A DNA stretch of 64,000 nucleotides from contig CACZBS010000015.1 in NCBI GenBank assembly GCA_902779455.1, forward strand, positions 26,700-90,699, read 5' to 3'. Position 1 is the stretch's first letter, and every line of letters begins with the position of its first letter. The notes beneath the pieces are model-generated. The model worked only from the letters and a program-made list of their open reading frames with translations. It searched no databases and had not been told where the DNA came from. The translations under genes were made by a program, and so were the position numbers. Positions 51,623 to 59,836 of the stretch are shown here, in pieces. The DNA comes from an uncultured Prevotellaceae bacterium (GTDB lineage Bacteria; Bacteroidota; Bacteroidia; Bacteroidales; Bacteroidaceae).

Positions 51623-51661
51623 AAATGTCGCTTTGTCGTTTTGTCGTATTTCTCGCGCTTC
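51623..51661 (+). repeat. Left direct repeat (TGTCGTTT x3 + CTCGCGCTTC)
   Basis: aaatgtcgctttgtcgttttgtcgtatttctcgcgcttc matches 59796-59836. Confidence 0.8.
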
Positions 51662-51742
51662 TGCATGAAACACTGCGTAAACGAAAGATTCGCCCAGCTG
51701 TCACAGCGGAGCGAATCTATCAAAGAAGCAAAAACCCCTGAT

Positions 51743-51853
51743 TCATCCGATGGCGTTTACACAGGCCGTGATGCCCAGCGCCGTCGCGATGCCCGACAGG
51801 ATGTAGAGCAGCGCATTGACGACGAACTTCCAAAAAGCCTTATTCTTCCACAT
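51743..51853 (-). CDS. Smalltalk-family small membrane peptide (36 aa)
   Basis: Below the ORF-track cutoff. MWKNKAFWKFVVNALLYILSGIATALGITACVNAIG*, directly downstream of the HU-like gene, the usual context for this family. Confidence 0.8.
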   Translation of the reverse strand: MWKNKAFWKFVVNALLYILSGIATALGITACVNAIG

Positions 51854-51929
51854 AGCAGTAAGATTGAAGATTAAACATTGAAGATTAGAAAGAGCCCCGC
51901 CAGCTCAGATGCAGGAGGGGCCCCATTGT

Positions 51930-52442
51930 TCAGTCGCCGGGGTTTTCGACGACGGGCTCGTTGTCGTTGCCGCCGCTCGAGGTGCCGCCACCGCCCGTGG
52001 AGCCGCCATCGCTTTCGCCGCCGGTGTACGTCATACCCAGCGAGGCGATGTCCTTGAGCGCCACCTTCTTGCGCAGCGAGACGCTGTCGAGCATAGCGCG
52101 GGAGCTCGAGTCGGGCAGGAAGCGCAGGCGCACGTTCTTGATCTGGTCCATCGTGGCCTCGTCGGCCGACTCGGCGGCGGTGCTGCTCACGGAGAGGTAG
52201 AACGTGCCGAGGCCGTCAATCTTCACCTTCTTCGACTCCATCAGCTGCTCGATGAGACAGTTGCGGAAAGCCTTCAGCACGCCCTGGACGATGTCCTCGG
52301 TGTAGGGCGAGCCGTGATCGACGATGTGCTTGCCGAGATCCTCGAGACTCAGCGTAGCGATGTGAACAGCCCGACGGTAGAACTTGCCTTTAGTCTTTTC
52401 GTTGTTCACAGTGTTCTGATACAAACGGGTCAAAAGTGCCAT
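51930..52442 (-). CDS. HU-related DNA-binding protein (Bacteroidota HU_rel type)
   Basis: KGKFYRR, IVQGVLKAF...LMESKKVKIDGLGTF and a Gly-rich acidic tail. Confidence 0.9.
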   Translation of the reverse strand: MALLTRLYQNTVNNEKTKGKFYRRAVHIATLSLEDLGKHIVDHGSPYTEDIVQGVLKAFRNCLIEQLMESKKVKIDGLGTFYLSVSSTAAESADEATMDQIKNVRLRFLPDSSSRAMLDSVSLRKKVALKDIASLGMTYTGGESDGGSTGGGGTSSGGNDNEPVVENPGD

Positions 52443-52556
52443 AGTTGTAAGAATTTTTAGTTAAACATGTTATCCTGAAAGGGCAATCCCTTTACACCTG
52501 CAAAGTTACGAAATCGGAGGCCCCGATGCAAACGAGGCCCCCGGTTTTAACGTTTT

Positions 52557-52997
52557 TTAGCGGAGTATCTTTCGGATGACGCCAACTTTACGCTTACCTG
52601 GACTCCAAGGATCGTTGGCGTAGTGGAGCCATACGCTTTCCGAGCCGATGTCGCCCTCAATGTAGAGCTCGTCGAAGTCGGGACACAGGCGGGCCAGCGT
52701 GGCCATCTTGCGGCAGGCGTCGTCAAGGTTGCAACACTTGATGTCGACGGCGCAGCCTTGCAGGTGATAACTCGTCGGGGAGCCGCCGACGGCTTTATTA
52801 ACCTCCTTCGACCTATAGCCGCTGTTGATGACAATAGGCTCACCTCCCAGCGCGAAGCGGAGCTTCTCGAGGGTTTCTGCTATCTCAACGAGATTATTTA
52901 TGACTACGGCTGGTGGCGCGTTATTGACGTTCTTAACGTTCGTGACACAAAGCTCCTTCAGACTGAAATGTTCAGTCAATTTTAAATGCTTAATCAT
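52557..52997 (-). CDS. Peptidase M15A (D-Ala-D-Ala carboxypeptidase/endolysin-like)
   Basis: LTEHFSLKEL, INSGYRSKEVNKAVGGSPTSYHLQGCAVDI and WLH motifs. Confidence 0.92.
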   Translation of the reverse strand: MIKHLKLTEHFSLKELCVTNVKNVNNAPPAVVINNLVEIAETLEKLRFALGGEPIVINSGYRSKEVNKAVGGSPTSYHLQGCAVDIKCCNLDDACRKMATLARLCPDFDELYIEGDIGSESVWLHYANDPWSPGKRKVGVIRKILR

Positions 52998-55570
52998 AGT
53001 GTGAGTACTTTTTTGATTTTCTTATACTTACGGTCTTTGGGGGCGGTGATGATTCCGTCACTGACCCATCGTCTGCAGGTTTGTCCGGCATTGTTCAGGG
53101 TTTTCAATCCCAGTATCTGCATGACATCCTCGGTCGTGAACTCCATCGGCAGCTGATTGTAGGCTTCGCGCACTTTCGTCGAGCGTCGCCGAGGTTCGAA
53201 ATCCTGCGTCTGAGCGTCGAGAGCATCCATGACCATTTGCCCAAAAAAGTGCATCTGCGACATGAGACAGAAGTCGCCGATGAGCCGGGCAAACTCGAGG
53301 TCGCTGTCGTCGCAGACTAGGTCGTCGCCCTTGATGGCGGCATCGAGCTGTCGCATGACCATGCGCACCAGCGCATAGCGCATCATGATGATCGGGATGC
53401 GCTTGCGGAAGTAGTCGAGGCATCGGTCTTGTTCCAGTCGGGCCTGCTCGGTCAGTTCGGCCTCGTATTTGTAGCAGTAGTCCACAAGCCGCTCAACGCC
53501 CTTGCCGCTGAGCTCGCCGCAGACTTGCTCGAGCCGCAAGCCGAGCGACCGCAGGTAGCACTCGCGATCGTGGTCGCGGACGACGCGGCGGCGGTCAATC
53601 ATGGCGTAGTCGTTGCTAGGCATGGGGAAGATGCAGAGGCGGGTGACGAGACCATCAAGCACCGTCGAAGGTCGGATCTTGCGGCGCAGGGCGTCGGGCG
53701 TGCCCGTGATGACCTGATTCCAATTCACCTGGATAATGCCATTTACCGACGCGTCGTTCGCATAGTCCACGCCGGCCAGCTCATCTTGAAAACTTTTGCA
53801 CTCGAGGTCGAGTTTGCCTGCCCAAGAGCCCGTCTGCGCCCGCAGGGCCGTGGCCAGCTCGGGCTCAAAAGTGTAGCAATGGAGATGGAGCGTTTGCCCG
53901 TCGGCGTCCTGATGCTGGTCGTCGATCGCATCCGTCAGACGGCGGTAGAGCATCGCGTTACTGATGGTGGACGGCACGTAGCGGATGACGGGGTGCTTCT
54001 GCTCGGGCGCCTCGCTGCGGGCGTTCTTGCTGGAGGCTGCGCGTTTCTTCATGTCCTCCTTGTACTGGCGTTCCCACTCGCGGCCGACGTTGTCGGCGGC
54101 TCGCATGGGCGCCATCAGAAGTTTGTCCATCTGCACGGCAAACGACTTACCGGAGGCGGCGTCACCGATGATGTAGACGAGGTACGAGAGCCGATAATCC
54201 TTGCCGTCGAAGTGAGGCCACCAGCAGCGGGTCAGGTACGTGCCCATCATCGCGCCGGCAGCTAAGACGCCAGCGAGCTTGTGCTGTGGCGGGAGATCGG
54301 CCACAGCTTCTCTGAAACCCGGGGCTTCGACCAGAAGAGGCTCCAGTCGCTTGGTCCAGGCGTCGTAGTCGATCGCAGCCACTCGAGCAGTTTCAGCGTC
54401 TGACGGCGCGTCATCATGCTGTACACCAGCAAGCTGTAGGACACGTTGCAGTCGTTTGGGGATAGACCTGTAGAGGGGTTTAAGACAAGCGTCACTTGCA
54501 ATTCGGTTGAGCTCGGACTGCCCTCGTTCGTTGACAATTTCTTGACCCACCGGCAGCTGCGCAAGGACCCGCGACAGTAGACCCGGGTCGTCATCGGCGA
54601 TATAGCGCAGGTCGCAAGCCAGCTGGAACAAGCTGCGATGACGGTCTCCTGCCTTTGGCATGCCGCCCTGAACGCTTTTGAACCATTCTTCTGCAATTCG
54701 CTCATAGCTGACATCGTGGTAGGTTAGAGTTTCATCAGGTTCAGGCTGTCCAGCCAGCAGCGCAGTTCCGTCTCGGCGTTGTACAGGGTTGTTGCCATTA
54801 TGTCCACCAGCAGTCTGAGAAGATCGACTATCACACTTAACGCTGCGACGATCACTCGCAAAAAGGTCACCAATGGCAGCACTATGCCCGCCGCGATAGA
54901 TTTCATTGTATTTTTGAGCAAATTCTTCATTGTGGTAATTAAATATGTCTCTGTCAATAAAAACTAAATCATCGAATCCGGGGCAGAACGACAGGCGCGA
55001 GGCGTCTTTGCACGACTCGTCCATCGTCATGCCGAGTTGAGAGGCCAGCCAGTGCTGGTTGTCGGCGATATTGCCGACCGCGGGGTCGGCCTTACCCACG
55101 AGGCGCAGTCCGAAGCCGGAGCTCGTCACGTGGATGAGCATCAGGCGCAGCTCGTCGGCACGGACCTTGATGGCCTTAGCCGTCTCCTTGACGTCTCCCT
55201 CGAGGTGGTCGAGGTCGAGCATATAAAGGCCGTTGAGCTGTGTGGCCGACTGCTTGCGCCATGCCCCGAGAATGCCAGTCTTCGACTTGGTGTCGTCGAA
55301 CGTGGCTTGGAAGATGTAGCAGGGCAGCTGGCGTTTCAGGCGGTCGGCCTCCTTGATGCAGCGCTTGCGCTCTGCCTCGAGGTCGGCGTTCATTGGCTCC
55401 GCGGGGTCGGGATTGGCCGCGATGAGCGCAGCAGCATCAGCGGCCTTTCGGCGCCACTCGCGGATTTCGCGGATGCGGCGGTTGACGCCGTCGTCAATGA
55501 GCAGCTGCTCAAAGAGACGGCTGGTTACTACTTGCGTAGGAGTGAAGAAATTGGATTGATAGCAAAACAT
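52994..55570 (-). CDS. BT4734/VirE-N-type primase fused to a DUF3987-like NTPase/helicase domain
   Basis: KRQLP, LYMLDLDHL, HVTSSGFGLR and CKDASRLSF (VirE_N/BT4734-type AEP); GDRHRSLFQLACDL (PriCT-like); Walker A IGDAASGKS; winged-helix-like tail. Confidence 0.82.
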   Translation of the reverse strand: MFCYQSNFFTPTQVVTSRLFEQLLIDDGVNRRIREIREWRRKAADAAALIAANPDPAEPMNADLEAERKRCIKEADRLKRQLPCYIFQATFDDTKSKTGILGAWRKQSATQLNGLYMLDLDHLEGDVKETAKAIKVRADELRLMLIHVTSSGFGLRLVGKADPAVGNIADNQHWLASQLGMTMDESCKDASRLSFCPGFDDLVFIDRDIFNYHNEEFAQKYNEIYRGGHSAAIGDLFASDRRSVKCDSRSSQTAGGHNGNNPVQRRDGTALLAGQPEPDETLTYHDVSYERIAEEWFKSVQGGMPKAGDRHRSLFQLACDLRYIADDDPGLLSRVLAQLPVGQEIVNERGQSELNRIASDACLKPLYRSIPKRLQRVLQLAGVQHDDAPSDAETARVAAIDYDAWTKRLEPLLVEAPGFREAVADLPPQHKLAGVLAAGAMMGTYLTRCWWPHFDGKDYRLSYLVYIIGDAASGKSFAVQMDKLLMAPMRAADNVGREWERQYKEDMKKRAASSKNARSEAPEQKHPVIRYVPSTISNAMLYRRLTDAIDDQHQDADGQTLHLHCYTFEPELATALRAQTGSWAGKLDLECKSFQDELAGVDYANDASVNGIIQVNWNQVITGTPDALRRKIRPSTVLDGLVTRLCIFPMPSNDYAMIDRRRVVRDHDRECYLRSLGLRLEQVCGELSGKGVERLVDYCYKYEAELTEQARLEQDRCLDYFRKRIPIIMMRYALVRMVMRQLDAAIKGDDLVCDDSDLEFARLIGDFCLMSQMHFFGQMVMDALDAQTQDFEPRRRSTKVREAYNQLPMEFTTEDVMQILGLKTLNNAGQTCRRWVSDGIITAPKDRKYKKIKKVLTL
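54724..54930 (-). CDS. Putative nested 68-aa membrane protein in the +1 frame of the primase linker
   Basis: MKNLLKNTMKSIAAGIVLPLVTFLRVIVAALSVIVDLLRLLVDIMATTLYNAETELRCWLDSLNLMKL*. Codons are host-like (ctg, tac, aac, gcc) in this frame while the primase frame becomes T3-rich. Confidence 0.55.
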   Translation of the reverse strand: MKNLLKNTMKSIAAGIVLPLVTFLRVIVAALSVIVDLLRLLVDIMATTLYNAETELRCWLDSLNLMKL

Positions 55571-56022
55571 TGATTAATCTCCTGCATTATTTGCATCATT
55601 CGTTTTTGATAGTTCGGATAGACAGTGATGTCGATTAAAAAGTTGACACCGATGACTTTCTGCGTCTTGTTAAGACGGACATCGACGTCTTGCTTGTGCA
55701 GAAGCACCGCTCCGACGGGCTTGCGGGGCTCCCGTGTCGCGAGCACAGCGGCGCATCGTTCCAACGATTGCTGCATTTCGGCGTAGGGATCGGGCGCGTC
55801 GGCATCGCAGACGAGGTGGGCCACGATCTTCCGGTCCTTCTTGCCGGTGGTGCGGTAGACCTTCGACGCACCGGATTTCTTGATGAGCTCCTGCATGGGC
55901 TCACCGGCCTGTTGCGGTCGGAACTCCATCGTGTCGTCCTCAGCGACCGACATGGTGCCGCGGATTTTGCGAGGCCACTTCTCTTCGGGAGTGGCCTGCG
56001 CGGATTTCACTTGCTCTTCCAT
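55528..56022 (-). CDS. Hypothetical protein upstream of the primase
   Basis: 164 aa, host-like GC3, overlaps both neighbouring genes as in an operon. Confidence 0.75.
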   Translation of the reverse strand: MEEQVKSAQATPEEKWPRKIRGTMSVAEDDTMEFRPQQAGEPMQELIKKSGASKVYRTTGKKDRKIVAHLVCDADAPDPYAEMQQSLERCAAVLATREPRKPVGAVLLHKQDVDVRLNKTQKVIGVNFLIDITVYPNYQKRMMQIMQEINQCFAINPISSLLRK

Positions 56023-56303
56023 ATCGGTGCAATGCGGTCAACGTAAACGATGGTATCGTAGCGCTTCTCGCCTGCCTGTGTTTCCCATTCGCGGGCCTGC
56101 GCAGACAGCTCTACGCGCACATAGTCGCCGACGGCATAGTTAGGAGCCCGGCGGGCGCGGTCGCCCGTCAGGAGGGCATTGACGGAGTTCAGTCCGTCGG
56201 TCAGTTTGACGACGCGCTCGGCGAACGTCTGCGGCTGCCCGTTTCGGTCGGTGTACTGCCGCTCATTGCACGGGCCGACCATTTCTACAAATGCTTGTTT
56301 CAT
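56007..56303 (-). CDS. DUF3127-like small OB-fold (SSB-like) protein
   Basis: RQYTDRNG...ERVVKL...VGDYVRVELSAQAREW...RY pattern; promoter motif TACCTTTG near 56347-56354. Confidence 0.6.
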   Translation of the reverse strand: MKQAFVEMVGPCNERQYTDRNGQPQTFAERVVKLTDGLNSVNALLTGDRARRAPNYAVGDYVRVELSAQAREWETQAGEKRYDTIVYVDRIAPIWKSK

Positions 56304-56430
56304 ATTCCAGAGTTTTATTGTTTATACTTGTTGGTTCGAACCGTCGGCAAAGGTACGGACATTGCGGCAAAAAAAAAATGCCGTTGCAGCCTCCGTAACT
56401 GCACAGCATTTAACACTCTGGAATATGATT

Positions 56431-56862
56431 TTATAAGATTCTCGCTCGCAATATATCGCTAAACTCTGAATAGAAGCCAGCATTCAGCGCCTTTTGCATA
56501 TCTGCCCTCATATTGCGGCGGCCCCAAAACATCTCGAAGGGCTGCCAACGCCGCTCTGGAGGCAGTTTCAGCAAATGGCCTATATGGTCGGCCAGCATCG
56601 CTACACGTGCCCGAGACAGCTCCTGCGGCTGATTTTGTTCGTCGAGCCATCCGGCGGCGCGGGCTTGCGCGAAGATTGCTTCAGCCTGCTTCGTAGCAAG
56701 CGGACTGTCAGCGGGCAATTCTTTTGTGTGGCAGACGATGGAGTCGGCTCGAGAGATTTGTATACGCTCGTCGGGGGTATTGTAAACATTCACTTGCTCT
56801 ACTGCGCCGAAATTCTGTCCGATTGAACTGTTATTGTATTGATTTACTTTAACGCCCTGCAT
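56431..56862 (-). CDS. Hypothetical protein
   Basis: AGWLDEQNQP...LA..I...L...W.PFE.FW pattern; start reassigned to ATG 56862 to reduce the overlap. Confidence 0.65.
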   Translation of the reverse strand: MQGVKVNQYNNSSIGQNFGAVEQVNVYNTPDERIQISRADSIVCHTKELPADSPLATKQAEAIFAQARAAGWLDEQNQPQELSRARVAMLADHIGHLLKLPPERRWQPFEMFWGRRNMRADMQKALNAGFYSEFSDILRARIL

Positions 56863-57148
56863 ATAGATCACGTGATTTGATTGTTTCAGCGGCCGCAATG
56901 CTGGTGCCTACGGGCGCCTCAAAGTAATTGTTTACGTTGGTTGTCGTCTTACCAGCTGCCTGAGACAGCTGAGCCAAAGGCACGTGAGCATCATGGCACG
57001 TTGCGGTGAGTTCCTTGATGATCTGGGCAGCCTCCTGCAGGTCACGCTCCAGTCTGACTTTCTCAGCCCTGAGCACCTGCATCTCATCAGCCAGGGCCAT
57101 CCTGGCCAGTTCCCTCAGCTCCTCCACTGAGTTGATAGTAATCTGCAT
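56849..57148 (-). CDS. Hypothetical coiled-coil protein (99 aa)
   Basis: Heptad-rich LRAEKVRLERDLQEAAQIIKEL; AGGAGG 7 nt before the ATG. Confidence 0.75.
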   Translation of the reverse strand: MQITINSVEELRELARMALADEMQVLRAEKVRLERDLQEAAQIIKELTATCHDAHVPLAQLSQAAGKTTTNVNNYFEAPVGTSIAAAETIKSRDLYAGR

Positions 57149-57336
57149 TGGTTATCCTCCTTTTCTTTTTTGTTTTAATAAACATAATGATTTCAATTTT
57201 GTTTGGTGAAAAGACCGCTATCCTCACGGACAGCGGTCATTGGTAAAAAAACTAAATTTTAATTGTACAAATTACCTGGCGGCGACCCTCACGGGCGGCA
57301 CTCTGAGGCCAGTTTTCTTATTATCAGCAATGCTGA

Positions 57337-57495
57337 TTATTCTTCTTCGTCGTCCCAGAAGCCGCCGCGGTCACGGCTCAGCAACTTGCTCTCGTCGTCG
57401 GCTGTGCCGCTATATTTATCGATCGAGCCAGCCATCAGCGTCTGGGGCATCACGTTCAGCACCTCGGTGCTGGGAATCTGATATGTCTTTTTCAT
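57337..57495 (-). CDS. 52-aa MKKTYxxP-type small peptide
   Basis: Below the ORF-track cutoff. MKKTYQIPSTEVLNVMPQTLMAGSIDKYSGTADDESKLLSRDRGGFWDDEEE*; AGGAGG 8 nt upstream. Confidence 0.75.
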   Translation of the reverse strand: MKKTYQIPSTEVLNVMPQTLMAGSIDKYSGTADDESKLLSRDRGGFWDDEEE

Positions 57496-57516
57496 TGTTT
57501 TATCCTCCTATTTTTA

Positions 57517-59295
57517 TTACTTAATGACTTTCTTACCATTCACAATATAGAGGCCCTTCACAGGCTGAGCCACGCGACGGCCCTGCAGGTCGAAGACCTC
57601 ATTGTTCATTGTACATTTTTCATTGTACATTGTTTCGATGCCTGTCATCTCAGCGTCGCCGCCGAAGCTCAGGTACGAACGCGAGCCCGTCTTCGTGGTA
57701 GGAAGGTAGACGCGGCCAACAGCCAGAGGAGCTGCGCCTGTCCACTCGTAGAAGCCGACTCCCTCGTTACCGTTGTAGAGCACGTAGCTACCAGCGGGAG
57801 CGGGCTCGTTAGCGGTGACAACCTTCAGCAGGTTGCCTTCGATGTTGCTCGTCGTTCCTTCATAGTCAACGATGGGGAAGTTGAACGTGTCAGCATTTTT
57901 CAGTACAACAGGAGCACCTGCGGGAATAGTAGTCGTCACGTCAGCCGTCGTCACAGACTTCTCATTGATGGCGGTGACAATCATGGCCTGCACACCGTTA
58001 GGCACTTTTACTTCGTACTGAGGAACGAACGTTGCCATACCAGCGCTTGTAACTTCCTTGCTGATGCAGCCAGTAATCGTAATAGGACCTACACCTACGT
58101 TCGAGCCTTTATGGAATACCAAACGTACAAATCTATCAGTTTTAGCAAAAAATTTGGTTGTTGTTAAAGGCAGGATATCATTTTGCTCGCCGCTGATTTC
58201 GAGCGTTTCTAAAGTCGTAAAAGTCTCGCCATCAGCAGAGGCATTTACATCGATATACGATGTATTGGCTCCACCAATCATCTTAACGCCAATAGTAACA
58301 ATGCCTGGCTGCTCATTCGTCTTTATCTGAATGTAGTCACCATCACTGTCGAACTTGATATTGTAGGGTGAATGATCGACGGCATAATTAGATCCGAGTC
58401 CGTATGTTGATATGCCCAATCCAACAAGATCGGATTTATTACCGCCCTCCCATTCGAACGGCAGTGGGGCATAGTCTGGTACAAAAGCGGCTTGGGTGAT
58501 TGTGACGAGATCCGAGTATACCTCTTTGGCGTCGTTGTCTAAAGCGTATACCTTCAAGTAAGCCGTGCGGGCTTCTCCGTCATTGGCTTCGACAAGGTAG
58601 TTTACGTTGTTGTCGTCGTCAATTTCGGCAGTAATCCAGTCGTAGGTTTCTACCGTCGTGCCGTCAGAGGCGAAGAAAGCTACATTGGCAGCATCGTCGG
58701 AAATGTTATCATAGGTAACAGTAATGACACCTTCTTCGCCTTCGCAAGGCACGCTCACCTGAGTGCTACCAACAGTAACGGCCGGTTCTGTAGGAGCTGC
58801 TGTCGTGTATGTTACTTTTACACTTTTAACATAAAGGGCCTTTTGGGCTTGTGAAGGTTTCGTCACTGTTACAACGATTTCTCCAGAGGCAGAACCTACA
58901 AATGTGTAGTCTGTTGCAGTGGTAGTCAAAGATTGGGCAGCCCCGCCAAAAGCAGCCCCGCCAACCGTAATGTCTGCAGTTGCGGTAACCCCAGAAGCAG
59001 TGCTGGCATTCACCACGATTTGAGTAATTGTTCCCGAGATGCCGGAAGTACTAAGTTTGATGTATTGAACTGCAGCTTTACCTGTACCATAATGAATGCC
59101 TCTCTCGCTGTCGAAAGTAGATTCGCTTCCATCAGAAGTCACGGTCCATTTTACATTGTCGTCAGCAGTTCCGCTGCCGCCGCAAGCTGCTGTAAAATTT
59201 AACGTGCTGACTGCAGCATTGACTTTTAACAAATTCCCGCTTCCTATGATAGCCAGGAGCAGGAGCAATGTTTTGATGTGTAGATTTTTTAACAT
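57517..59295 (-). CDS. T9SS-secreted protein with BACON-like domain, lower GC
   Basis: Signal peptide; WITAEID...YLVEANDGEARTAYL (BACON-like); CTD TGIETM...EVFDLQGRRVAQPVKGLYIVNGKKVIK. Confidence 0.85.
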   Translation of the reverse strand: MLKNLHIKTLLLLLAIIGSGNLLKVNAAVSTLNFTAACGGSGTADDNVKWTVTSDGSESTFDSERGIHYGTGKAAVQYIKLSTSGISGTITQIVVNASTASGVTATADITVGGAAFGGAAQSLTTTATDYTFVGSASGEIVVTVTKPSQAQKALYVKSVKVTYTTAAPTEPAVTVGSTQVSVPCEGEEGVITVTYDNISDDAANVAFFASDGTTVETYDWITAEIDDDNNVNYLVEANDGEARTAYLKVYALDNDAKEVYSDLVTITQAAFVPDYAPLPFEWEGGNKSDLVGLGISTYGLGSNYAVDHSPYNIKFDSDGDYIQIKTNEQPGIVTIGVKMIGGANTSYIDVNASADGETFTTLETLEISGEQNDILPLTTTKFFAKTDRFVRLVFHKGSNVGVGPITITGCISKEVTSAGMATFVPQYEVKVPNGVQAMIVTAINEKSVTTADVTTTIPAGAPVVLKNADTFNFPIVDYEGTTSNIEGNLLKVVTANEPAPAGSYVLYNGNEGVGFYEWTGAAPLAVGRVYLPTTKTGSRSYLSFGGDAEMTGIETMYNEKCTMNNEVFDLQGRRVAQPVKGLYIVNGKKVIK

Positions 59296-59513
59296 AATGA
59301 TTAAATTATAAATTAATGGTTTGTATGTTCCTCATCTGTAGGCAGCGCAAAGGCATGCACGGGTGGGGTTGCGTCACGCGGGGCGCAAATCGGGTGCAAA
59401 GTTACAAAGACTTTCGGATATAACCAAGACATTGCCCAAAAATATTGGGGGGCCGCGTCTGTTAAAAGTTGTGTATTTTTAGTCCCGTTTGCGGCCCTCC
59501 CGGGAAAATATCG

Positions 59514-59521
59514 TATCTTTG
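59514..59521 (+). promoter_or_regulatory. -7 promoter element with no intact downstream ORF
   Basis: TATCTTTG, with a TTTG at 59488-59491; divergent from the minus-strand motif near 59397. Confidence 0.55.
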
Positions 59522-59524
59522 CAG

Positions 59525-59635
59525 CCGTGTGCCACAGAGGTTGCGATTCACTAGCACGCTCGCCCCGCCCTTCGGGGCGCATGCATCCGCGCAGGCGTCG
59601 CCTTTACAGTATACACCTGCGCGGACTTTCAACAA
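59525..59635 (+). ncRNA. Candidate structured RNA or leader
   Basis: Hairpins cgcccc/ggggcg and tccgcgcagg/cctgcgcgga immediately after the orphan promoter. Confidence 0.25.
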
Positions 59636-59693
59636 ATAAGCGCTAAAATCTCGCACTTCCATCATTTTGCCGATTTTATTGCGGAAAACGTGA

Positions 59694-59836
59694 AAATACG
59701 ACAATACGACAATACGACATTTTGTATAAAACGGACGTTGAATATAATATTATATAATAATATTATAAAATAATTCAATCTATGTCTATAATTATAAATG
59801 TCGTTTTGTCGTTTTGTCGTTTTCGTCTCGCGCTTC
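59694..59836. repeat. Inverted 8-mer triplets flanking an AT-rich core (includes the right direct repeat)
   Basis: (aatacgac)3 at 59694-59722, about 70 nt of nearly pure AT, then (tgtcgttt)3 + ctcgcgcttc at 59796-59836. Confidence 0.85.

Follow-up and report, generated by a model that had tools for sequence, protein, structure and literature searches.

We analyzed a 64,000-nucleotide (nt) stretch of DNA from an uncultured Prevotellaceae bacterium (GenBank assembly GCA_902779455.1, contig CACZBS010000015.1, positions 26,700 to 90,699 of the forward strand), called the window below, and found that a primase-like gene in it contains a second, nested open reading frame (ORF) that is probably a selected and translated overprinted gene. 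This frame, ORF-A (table 1), lies wholly within the host ORF at 52994-55570, on the same strand (-) and in the +1 frame, and has its own start (ATG, 54928-54930) and its own stop (TAA, 54724-54726). A signature of selection on ORF-A is seen at the level of sequence across the family, and we infer from it that the product is translated and inserted into the membrane. Ribosomes would start at the internal +1 ATG within the mRNA of the host gene and make a product of about 65 amino acids (aa), whose N-terminus would be basic, whose single helix would span the membrane, and whose tail would be charged and amphipathic. Selection would maintain the start codon, the hydrophobic run, and the stop, and the hydrophobic run would rest on T at the second codon position of the +1 frame, where the primase frame has its third codon position. 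The primase would tolerate the overlap because it falls within a hypervariable and presumably disordered linker between two domains.

The host protein joins an archaeo-eukaryotic primase (AEP) domain to a P-loop half. Its residues 78-196 matched PF08800 of Pfam (E=2.4e-10, 41.1 bits against a cut-off of 22.4), and the PrimPol model of PADLOC matched the same N-terminal domain (E=2e-10). BT4734-like proteins are a recognised family of AEPs, and DUF3987 is a predicted helicase (PMC5862659). The segment YMLDLDH (aa 116-122), whose D119, D121, and H122 were invariant in the alignment, fits AEP motif I, hhhDhD/E (PMC5862659). The Walker A motif GDAASGKS was also invariant across the host-gene alignment. 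No significant Pfam match of its own was found for the C-terminal half of the window protein, the C-terminal half of one homologue matched DUF3987 weakly, and a sequence search yielded no PDB relative. An earlier note on this DNA had called the protein a primase-helicase, a reasonable label given the PF08800 and PrimPol matches in the N-terminal domain and the Walker A motif in the C-terminal half. The linker between the two halves varied in both sequence and length in the protein alignment and was bounded by conserved YRGG and YHG.SY motifs, and nonsynonymous divergence in the primase frame (frame 0) was higher there than in the rest of the gene.

Table 1. Coordinates of ORF-A, its host gene, and associated features in the window.
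Feature	Position	Strand	Basis
Host gene, 858-aa AEP-primase/P-loop ORF	52994..55570	-	ORF translation
BT4734-like AEP primase domain (aa 78-196)	54983-55339	-	Pfam PF08800, PADLOC PrimPol
Walker A motif GDAASGKS (aa 469-476 of host protein)	54143-54166	-	motif
Hypervariable interdomain linker (aa 227-283, frame 0)	54722..54892	-	alignment
ORF-A, nested +1-frame ORF, 68 aa, MKNLLKNTMKSIAAGIVLPLVTFLRVIVAALSVIVDLLRLLVDIMATTLYNAETELRCWLDSLNLMKL	54724..54930	-	translation, family conservation
Hydrophobic core of ORF-A, residues S11-V35 (predicted transmembrane)	54826..54900	-	Kyte-Doolittle window
AT-rich, G-poor 40 nt 5' of the ORF-A ATG (putative initiation region)	54931..54970	-	composition across homologues
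ORF-B, +1-frame ORF, 150 aa	54262..54714	-	stop avoidance, ATG conservation
Conserved cassette, ~4.75 kb	51623..56357	-	85-87% identical to loci L007 and L010
SSB/DUF3127-like gene	56007-56303	-	cassette
164-aa unknown	55528-56022	-	cassette
Peptidase M15 (endolysin-like), 4-nt overlap with primase stop	52557..52997	-	PF08291, E=2.4e-18
HU-HIG gene	51930-52442	-	cassette
36-aa membrane peptide MWKNKAFWKFVVNALLYILSGIATALGITACVNAIG, 3' of HU-HIG	51743-51853	-	weak DUF6486 match, E=0.016

Signals for ORF-A in the window and its homologues

The codon choice of the host gene changed markedly in the linker. Third-position T (T3) reached 0.49 over aa 227-283, where the synonymous usage of the gene itself predicts 0.17, and the GC content dipped to 0.40-0.42 at 54840-55019. 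The T-ending primase codons are those of aa 224-248, which run across the hydrophobic core of ORF-A. The earlier note had drawn attention to T-ending codons at this place; the trend that it described holds, while the codons that it quoted were approximate and left out gcc, gac, and gcg. The hydrophobic run that it read in the +1 frame is exactly the SIAAGIVLPLVTFLRVIVAALSVIV of the ORF-A translation, and its +1 codon run (ctg tac aac ... aac ctg) was likewise exact and consists of G/C-ending codons. The tail encoded downstream of the core includes the peptides LLVDIMATTLYNAETELR and CWLDSLNLMK. A longer form of ORF-A, starting from a TTG (54955-54957), would cover 54724..54957 and 77 aa. The AlphaFold2 model of ORF-A was a single helix over residues 2-67 with a mean pLDDT (predicted local distance difference test) of 84, a long-helix model that adds little.

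Codon usage, scored as a log-likelihood trained on 16 host genes, favored the +1 frame over the overlap only (-0.04, against -0.95 for the primase frame). Over the remainder of the host gene, frame 0 scored about +0.3 to +0.9 and the +1 frame about -1.2. The best 19-aa Kyte-Doolittle (KD) window of ORF-A reached 2.55, compared with 0.69+-0.43 under synonymous randomization of the primase codons (P<0.001) and 1.09+-0.44 when the AT-richer local codon usage was applied (P=0.002). Openness of the +1 frame was rejected as evidence in single sequences. By itself it was not beyond chance in the window (P=0.56) or in any single sequence (P 0.3-1.0), as expected from a hydrophilic linker that rarely supplies frame-0 NTA or NTG codons followed by a purine. 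The +2 frame, full of stops, was rejected as well. So was an antisense gene as the cause, since the antisense frames were not consistently open and showed no stop depletion against permutation. A 62-aa antisense ORF (54779-54967, +) does lie opposite ORF-A; it had no conservation signal in the homologues and most likely arises incidentally from the T-rich third positions.

A database search retrieved 1116 homologues of the host protein from rumen and gut metagenomes; few of them carry a name, and those are Prevotella. A look for RNA runs turned up only DNA metagenomes of bovine and goat gut. For the comparison we used the DNA of 6 close homologues, which are 60-87% identical, and of 80 loci from metagenomes (41-74%), and after identical linkers had been dropped, 64 sequences spanned the region, 59 of them closer (41-87%) and 5 distant. 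The distant sequences, L001-L005 (30-32% identity), belong to a group of relatives found by a scan of genome contigs (L001-L006, 30-38%); they span the linker without the feature and served as outgroups. ORF-A was kept in 54 of the 59 closer homologues. Its products share one architecture: the N-terminal pattern M-K-T-K-N-x-x-K-N, a hydrophobic stretch, a charged tail, and a stop. Their median length was 66.5 aa, with an N-terminus of net charge +2.6, a median uncharged run of 20.5 aa, a hydrophobic helix span of 20-30 aa, and a tail of about 30 aa with about 8 charged residues and often a Trp. The best 19-aa KD value was about 2.0-2.9 in most of the 54 (1.15-2.92 overall), whereas the synonymous null gave about 0.3+-0.45. 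Tested against local codon usage, the hydrophobic signal held at P<=0.05 in 53 of the 54 and at P<=0.01 in 44.

The enrichment of T was equally marked across the family. In the linker of the 54 homologues T3 was 0.369, against 0.150 expected. This 2.5-fold enrichment compares with a 1.3-fold one for A, and it was confined to codon position 3. Along the gene, T3 rose to 0.42-0.53 at reference aa 211-260, compared with 0.08-0.11 in both flanking domains, and third-position A (A3) peaked on either side of the T3 peak, corresponding to a hydrophilic-hydrophobic-hydrophilic +1 product. The five closer homologues that lack the hydrophobic segment (L039, L064, L077, L081, and L085) also lack the T3 excess and the stop, and thus act as natural negative controls.

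The start codon of ORF-A was preserved in a way that codon choice in the primase reveals. A +1 ATG was present at Y212 or N214 in 54 of 54 homologues, against 29.7 expected. In our tally, Y212 was encoded by TAT in 38 of the 39 genes whose next codon begins with G, giving ATG, and by TAC in 13 of the 15 genes whose next codon does not, and all 16 genes without ATG at Y212 had AAT followed by G at N214. The codon choice thus covaries with the codon that follows, and two codon solutions preserve one start. Positions -40 to -1 of the ATG were AT-rich and depleted of G in 53 homologues, with A favored at -3/-4 and at -25 to -10 and with GC-rich sequence further 5'. Synonymous choice was visible here too, because A3 was 0.29 against 0.12 expected and T3 0.34 against 0.18 at reference aa 201-220. 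An AT-rich, G-poor leader fits Shine-Dalgarno-independent initiation in Bacteroidota. In the window this putative initiation region spans the TTG at 54955-54957 and a T-run, gtttttattg.

The earlier note had offered that T-run (~54957-54966) as the site of a programmed +1 frameshift, which would produce a membrane-anchored primase fusion. The window does have the five-T run with an open +1 frame from 54957, and the +1 frame is open far upstream in many homologues. Nevertheless, the T-run was not conserved, and no conserved slippery motif was seen by eye. A +1 stop occurred at reference aa 205, just past the T-run, in 10 of 46 tabulated homologues, and several homologues had stops at aa 193-202, leaving at most 6 codons for a shift. 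Moreover, a frameshift would not need a conserved ATG, and the ATG is kept by codon choice. We consider this explanation very improbable.

The stop of ORF-A was also conserved. A +1 stop fell within -18 to +3 codons of the invariant Y284 in 52 of 54 homologues, against 32.4 expected, and the ORF-A stop lay 5-50 nt before Y284 across the family. Start, stop, and composition together bear on another explanation, namely that no second protein exists and that the richness in T3 is a nucleic-acid or kinetic signal, for example a slowing by rare codons at a domain boundary or an unstructured, U-rich mRNA. T-ending codons in frame 0 automatically give an open and hydrophobic +1 frame, the +1 openness of single sequences is not significant, the +1 peptide sequence is poorly conserved, and the whole middle third of the host gene (aa ~195-430) is richer in A3 and T3 than both flanking domains; all of this agrees with such a signal. 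As a side observation, T3 was 0.2-0.3 at 53860-54640 (-; reference aa 290-430). However, a generally AT-rich middle region was rejected as the whole explanation, since the hydrophobic signal beat the local codon-usage null in 53 of the 54 homologues. A kinetic or compositional signal would also leave unexplained the ATG kept by two codon solutions that covary with the codon after them, the conserved stop, and the order of A-rich, T-rich, and A-rich stretches. The enrichment is specific to T and to position 3, although a free linker could take T at positions 1 and 2, and equally variable linkers without a +1 hydrophobic segment showed normal T3. A signal without a second protein is thus unlikely.

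The pattern of substitutions provided a further line of evidence for an overprinted gene. In 7 independent, well-aligned close pairs, changes that are silent in the primase and nonsynonymous in the +1 frame occurred at 0.172 in the overlap and 0.385 elsewhere (odds ratio 0.33, p=5e-16), whereas changes that are nonsynonymous in the primase and silent in the +1 frame were more frequent in the overlap (0.215 against 0.118, p=3.5e-7). Fourfold sites had changed at 1 of 30 positions in the overlap and 92 of 327 in the rest between L007 and the window, and at 1 of 24 and 112 of 297 between L057 and L093. A sliding scan of the synonymous rate in 14 pairs had its deepest trough at aa 209-281, with observed/expected of about 0.5-0.67 and p down to 5e-6. 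The several sequence-level signals for ORF-A share one underlying cause. They support the proposal of the earlier note that selection acts on the +1 frame, which would form a nested membrane-protein gene: the frame, its ATG, its stop, and its KD signal persist in homologues that are free of +1 stops over the stretch, and sites that are synonymous in the primase are constrained.

Several observations weigh against a selected and translated ORF-A. The homologues share ancestry, and the counts given above overstate their independence. Apart from features that the primase frame dictates, the +1 peptide retains only the hydrophobic pattern and the C-terminal Trp, and permutation of synonymous codons within the linker revealed only modest clustering (median P 0.12). 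Three pairs (L048-L050, L014-L015, and L017-L029) had no synonymous suppression. Moreover, dNN/dNS of the +1 frame was 0.62 in the overlap and 0.80 in the rest of the gene, a weak to moderate constraint, which implies that the constraint falls mostly on T at the second codon position of the +1 frame.

The second +1 frame, ORF-B

Downstream of ORF-A, the same +1 frame contains a second ORF, ORF-B, whose ATG lies 9 nt past the ORF-A stop in the window and whose stop lies 8 nt before M440/M441 of frame 0 (54248-54253; M441 is invariant). Over aa 288-424 the 59 homologues had 0.83 +1 stops, against 3.2 by synonymous permutation within the region, and this depletion was absent from three control regions and from all other frames. 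An ATG was present at most 10 codons past the ORF-A stop in 52 of 52 homologues, where 19-27 were expected. Across the homologues ORF-B usually ends at aa 423, 54 nt before M441. Where the hydrophobic segment is missing, homologues still have the ATG at the ORF-A start, and their +1 frame runs open from there to about aa 423. No constraint on the amino acids of ORF-B was detected (dSN of 0.427 was close to dSS of 0.444), and ORF-B had no database match. Synonymous divergence had a second, weaker dip at aa 313-361 (observed/expected ~0.7). Judged from the conserved ATG and the avoidance of stops, ORF-B appears to be translated by coupling. The pattern would fit a coupling or relay role in which translation is what is selected, or a weakly constrained young protein.

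These features raise the possibility that translation of the +1 frame itself is selected rather than its peptides. ORF-A and ORF-B would then form a relay, with a restart 2-9 codons on and a stop near M441, an arrangement that is compatible with a functional ORF-A. It could serve to bring ribosomes to a frame-0 start inside the gene, from which a helicase-only isoform would be made, or to keep an internally started transcript translated as far as the endolysin gene. The conserved ORF-B start, the scarcity of +1 stops, the unconstrained amino acids of ORF-B, and the open +1 frame of the segment-less homologues all agree with a relay, as does the position of the ORF-B stop in the window. In locus L099, moreover, the primase frame is intact, yet the genes called are ORF-A, ORF-B, and a frame-0 ORF that starts at the Met corresponding to M441. 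On the other hand, a relay leaves the hydrophobicity of ORF-A unexplained, ORF-B ends well short of M441 in most homologues, and no conserved Bacteroidota-type promoter box was visible by eye 5' of ORF-A across the homologues. Selection of +1 translation alone is therefore quite unlikely, and a translated ORF-A whose product is maintained by selection is the explanation that we prefer.

The cassette, its lysin genes, and a possible holin role

The host gene belongs to a conserved cassette (table 1) whose copies in L007 and L010 sit in unrelated genomic contexts. The proportion of GC at third codon positions (GC3) was 0.5-0.7 in the cassette, compared with 0.75-0.94 in the surrounding host genes that served for the codon-usage scoring. 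The cassette looks like a mobile or frequently exchanged module, and no integrase was seen at it. Compared with L007 and L010, the window has an insert of about 3.3 kb (56358-59664) that separates the cassette from a short conserved flank (59665-59825); its ORFs encode a 155-aa protein, a 99-aa coiled-coil protein, and a 592-aa protein of low GC3 (57517-59295) without a significant Pfam match. Within the cassette, the upstream 164-aa ORF shares the first 43 nt of the host ORF (55528-55570, -), and the database copy of the primase-like protein of the window is 799 aa long. Given the overlap and the shorter copy, the primase-like gene may actually begin at a Met further downstream. A phage origin of the host gene was rejected, as there was one weak tblastn match (22% identity) and no PHROG.

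The gene that follows the primase-like gene in the window encodes a peptidase M15, which matched PHROG 894, "endolysin" (E=2.9e-28), and carries no N-terminal signal peptide (the best 10-aa KD window in its first 35 aa was 1.05). The survey of the next gene covered the 41 ORF-A-positive loci that had 150 nt or more of 3' sequence. Judged by motif, the next gene was endolysin-like in 25 of them (9 M15, 6 Amidase_2, and 10 PHROG-873-like), and in 27 once two loci with variant motifs were added by eye. The PHROG-873-like ("RNNNP") family matched "endolysin" with E=9.4e-30, and the examples checked from all three lysin families had no N-terminal hydrophobic signal. Non-orthologous replacement has thus placed three unrelated lysin families at one fixed position after the primase-like gene (loci L017-L093), which suggests that a wall-cutting function is conserved there.

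Cytoplasmic wall-cutting enzymes without a signal normally need a membrane partner. ORF-A, which sits 1.7 kb upstream of the lysin start, fits the layout of small holins in its size, its one predicted transmembrane helix, and its charged, hydrophilic C-terminus. Provided that ORF-A is real, its likeliest single role, put forward tentatively and still more doubtful than not, would be that of a holin-like or membrane-permeabilizing partner of the downstream signal-less endolysin-like gene; failing that, it may serve the cassette as a small membrane effector or regulator of a different kind. Four points count against a holin. ORF-A matched no holin family among the Pfam and PHROGs models, the cassette holds other small membrane peptides, L081 retains an amidase without having the hydrophobic segment, and 14 of the 41 positive loci had no lysin within the 300 nt available.

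Other small membrane peptides are encoded around the primase-like gene. The gene of the 36-aa peptide at 51743-51853 is kept in L007, L010, L014, and L015, and its product is a further candidate for the membrane partner of the endolysin. A gene for a hydrophobic peptide of 37-38 aa (MFTTSVLTAIVAAFVIFVLGIIVGYAARSVVAYLHEK) lies upstream of the cassette in L007 (2984-3097), L010 (2986-3099), and L014 (445-561); by tblastn it is absent from the window. In L068, L073, L077, L079, and L082, a free-standing amphipathic peptide of 45-50 aa with an acidic tail, for example MKKLFAFSIKTVWELIKYIKPLYELIAAIVKIIKNDKKDEEELKN, is encoded between the primase-like gene and the lysin gene. The clade with this type of peptide includes L077, which has no nested hydrophobic ORF.

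The observations on ORF-A, ORF-B, and the lysin genes could be joined in a wider arrangement, a two-cistron +1 "operon within a gene" that would occupy the middle third of the host gene and be conserved across rumen Prevotella. ORF-A would be the holin or membrane trigger of the endolysin, and the coupled ORF-B (~140 codons), selected for its translation, would relay ribosomes to a helicase-only start at M441 or to the lysis gene. This combination as a whole is doubtful.

Comparison with known nested genes and significance

No family in Pfam, NCBIfam, PHROGs, or PADLOC matched ORF-A. Among 5.8 billion proteins a profile search returned 5 sequences, and an exhaustive HMMER search of 1.84 billion representatives returned 11, of which 10 were small peptides of the same type and 1, a 1126-aa protein, was spurious. 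Neither of these two large protein searches yielded a free-standing homologue. All copies that we inspected were nested, and it was a short or gapped contig that had led to their being called as genes; that gene callers pick the ORF on such fragmentary contigs counts in its favor. The literature searched did not describe this nested gene. Overall, ORF-A is probably a conserved, unannotated overprinted gene.

Several known systems resemble ORF-A in part. The lysis gene E of phage phiX174, a phage with single-stranded DNA, is embedded in the +1 frame of the scaffold gene D, and its product blocks MraY without an endolysin. Like E, ORF-A would encode a small protein with one N-terminal membrane helix, lies out of frame on the same strand within another gene, has the hydrophobic segment as its constrained part, and occurs in a lysis-related context. 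In contrast to E, ORF-A sits in a primase-like gene, within a cassette of a bacterial chromosome and with an endolysin-like gene nearby; E and ORF-A share no sequence similarity. Gene 4 of phage T7 is likewise a primase-helicase gene with extra coding information inside, since an internal in-frame start gives a helicase-only form and the out-of-frame ORFs 4.1 and 4.2 lie within it. Its primase is of the DnaG type and unrelated to AEP primases, and to our knowledge ORFs 4.1 and 4.2 do not encode membrane peptides, nor is a conserved role known for them.

Among cellular genes, comS is nested on the same strand within srfA of Bacillus subtilis. Another same-strand case is gndA within gnd of Escherichia coli (PMC11230408). 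Both are small out-of-frame ORFs within a large cellular gene that are translated on their own, as ORF-A would be. As far as is known, the comS and gndA cases rest on experiments in one or few species, whereas ORF-A is supported by comparative signals down to 41% identity. The spanin gene Rz1 of phage lambda is embedded in the +1 frame of Rz (PMC5295617). It is comparable in being a small gene for an envelope protein that lies completely inside another gene of its strand, shifted to the +1 frame, and in belonging to a lysis cassette beside an endolysin. However, the Rz1 product is a lipoprotein of the outer membrane, made with a signal peptide and a lipobox, and Rz, in which the gene is embedded, encodes its functional partner, while ORF-A lacks a lipobox and lies in the gene of a replication protein. 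The small, single-helix holins resemble ORF-A in size (57-84 aa for most), in having a single hydrophobic helix and a charged tail at the C-terminus, and in their linkage to a cytoplasmic endolysin-like enzyme. They differ from it in that ORF-A matches no Pfam or PHROGs holin model and is not a free-standing gene immediately beside the lysin gene.

Same-strand overlaps are well established in small phages, but in bacterial chromosomes they are usually dismissed and never annotated. Few bacterial same-strand overlaps have comparative support, and ORF-A would be a rare well-supported case, whose signal can be read from the DNA in the start, the stop, the hydrophobic pattern, and the constraint on synonymous sites. 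ORF-B, with a conserved start and open frame and a free sequence, would be an unusual case of selection for translation itself. The BT4734-like AEP primase cassettes of Bacteroidota are widespread in gut and rumen bacteria. If the ORF-A peptide is made, it would add an unannotated membrane protein family to these cassettes and offer a candidate, open to test, for the way in which cell-wall hydrolases without a signal get to the wall, and it would mean that disordered interdomain linkers can host the birth of new genes.

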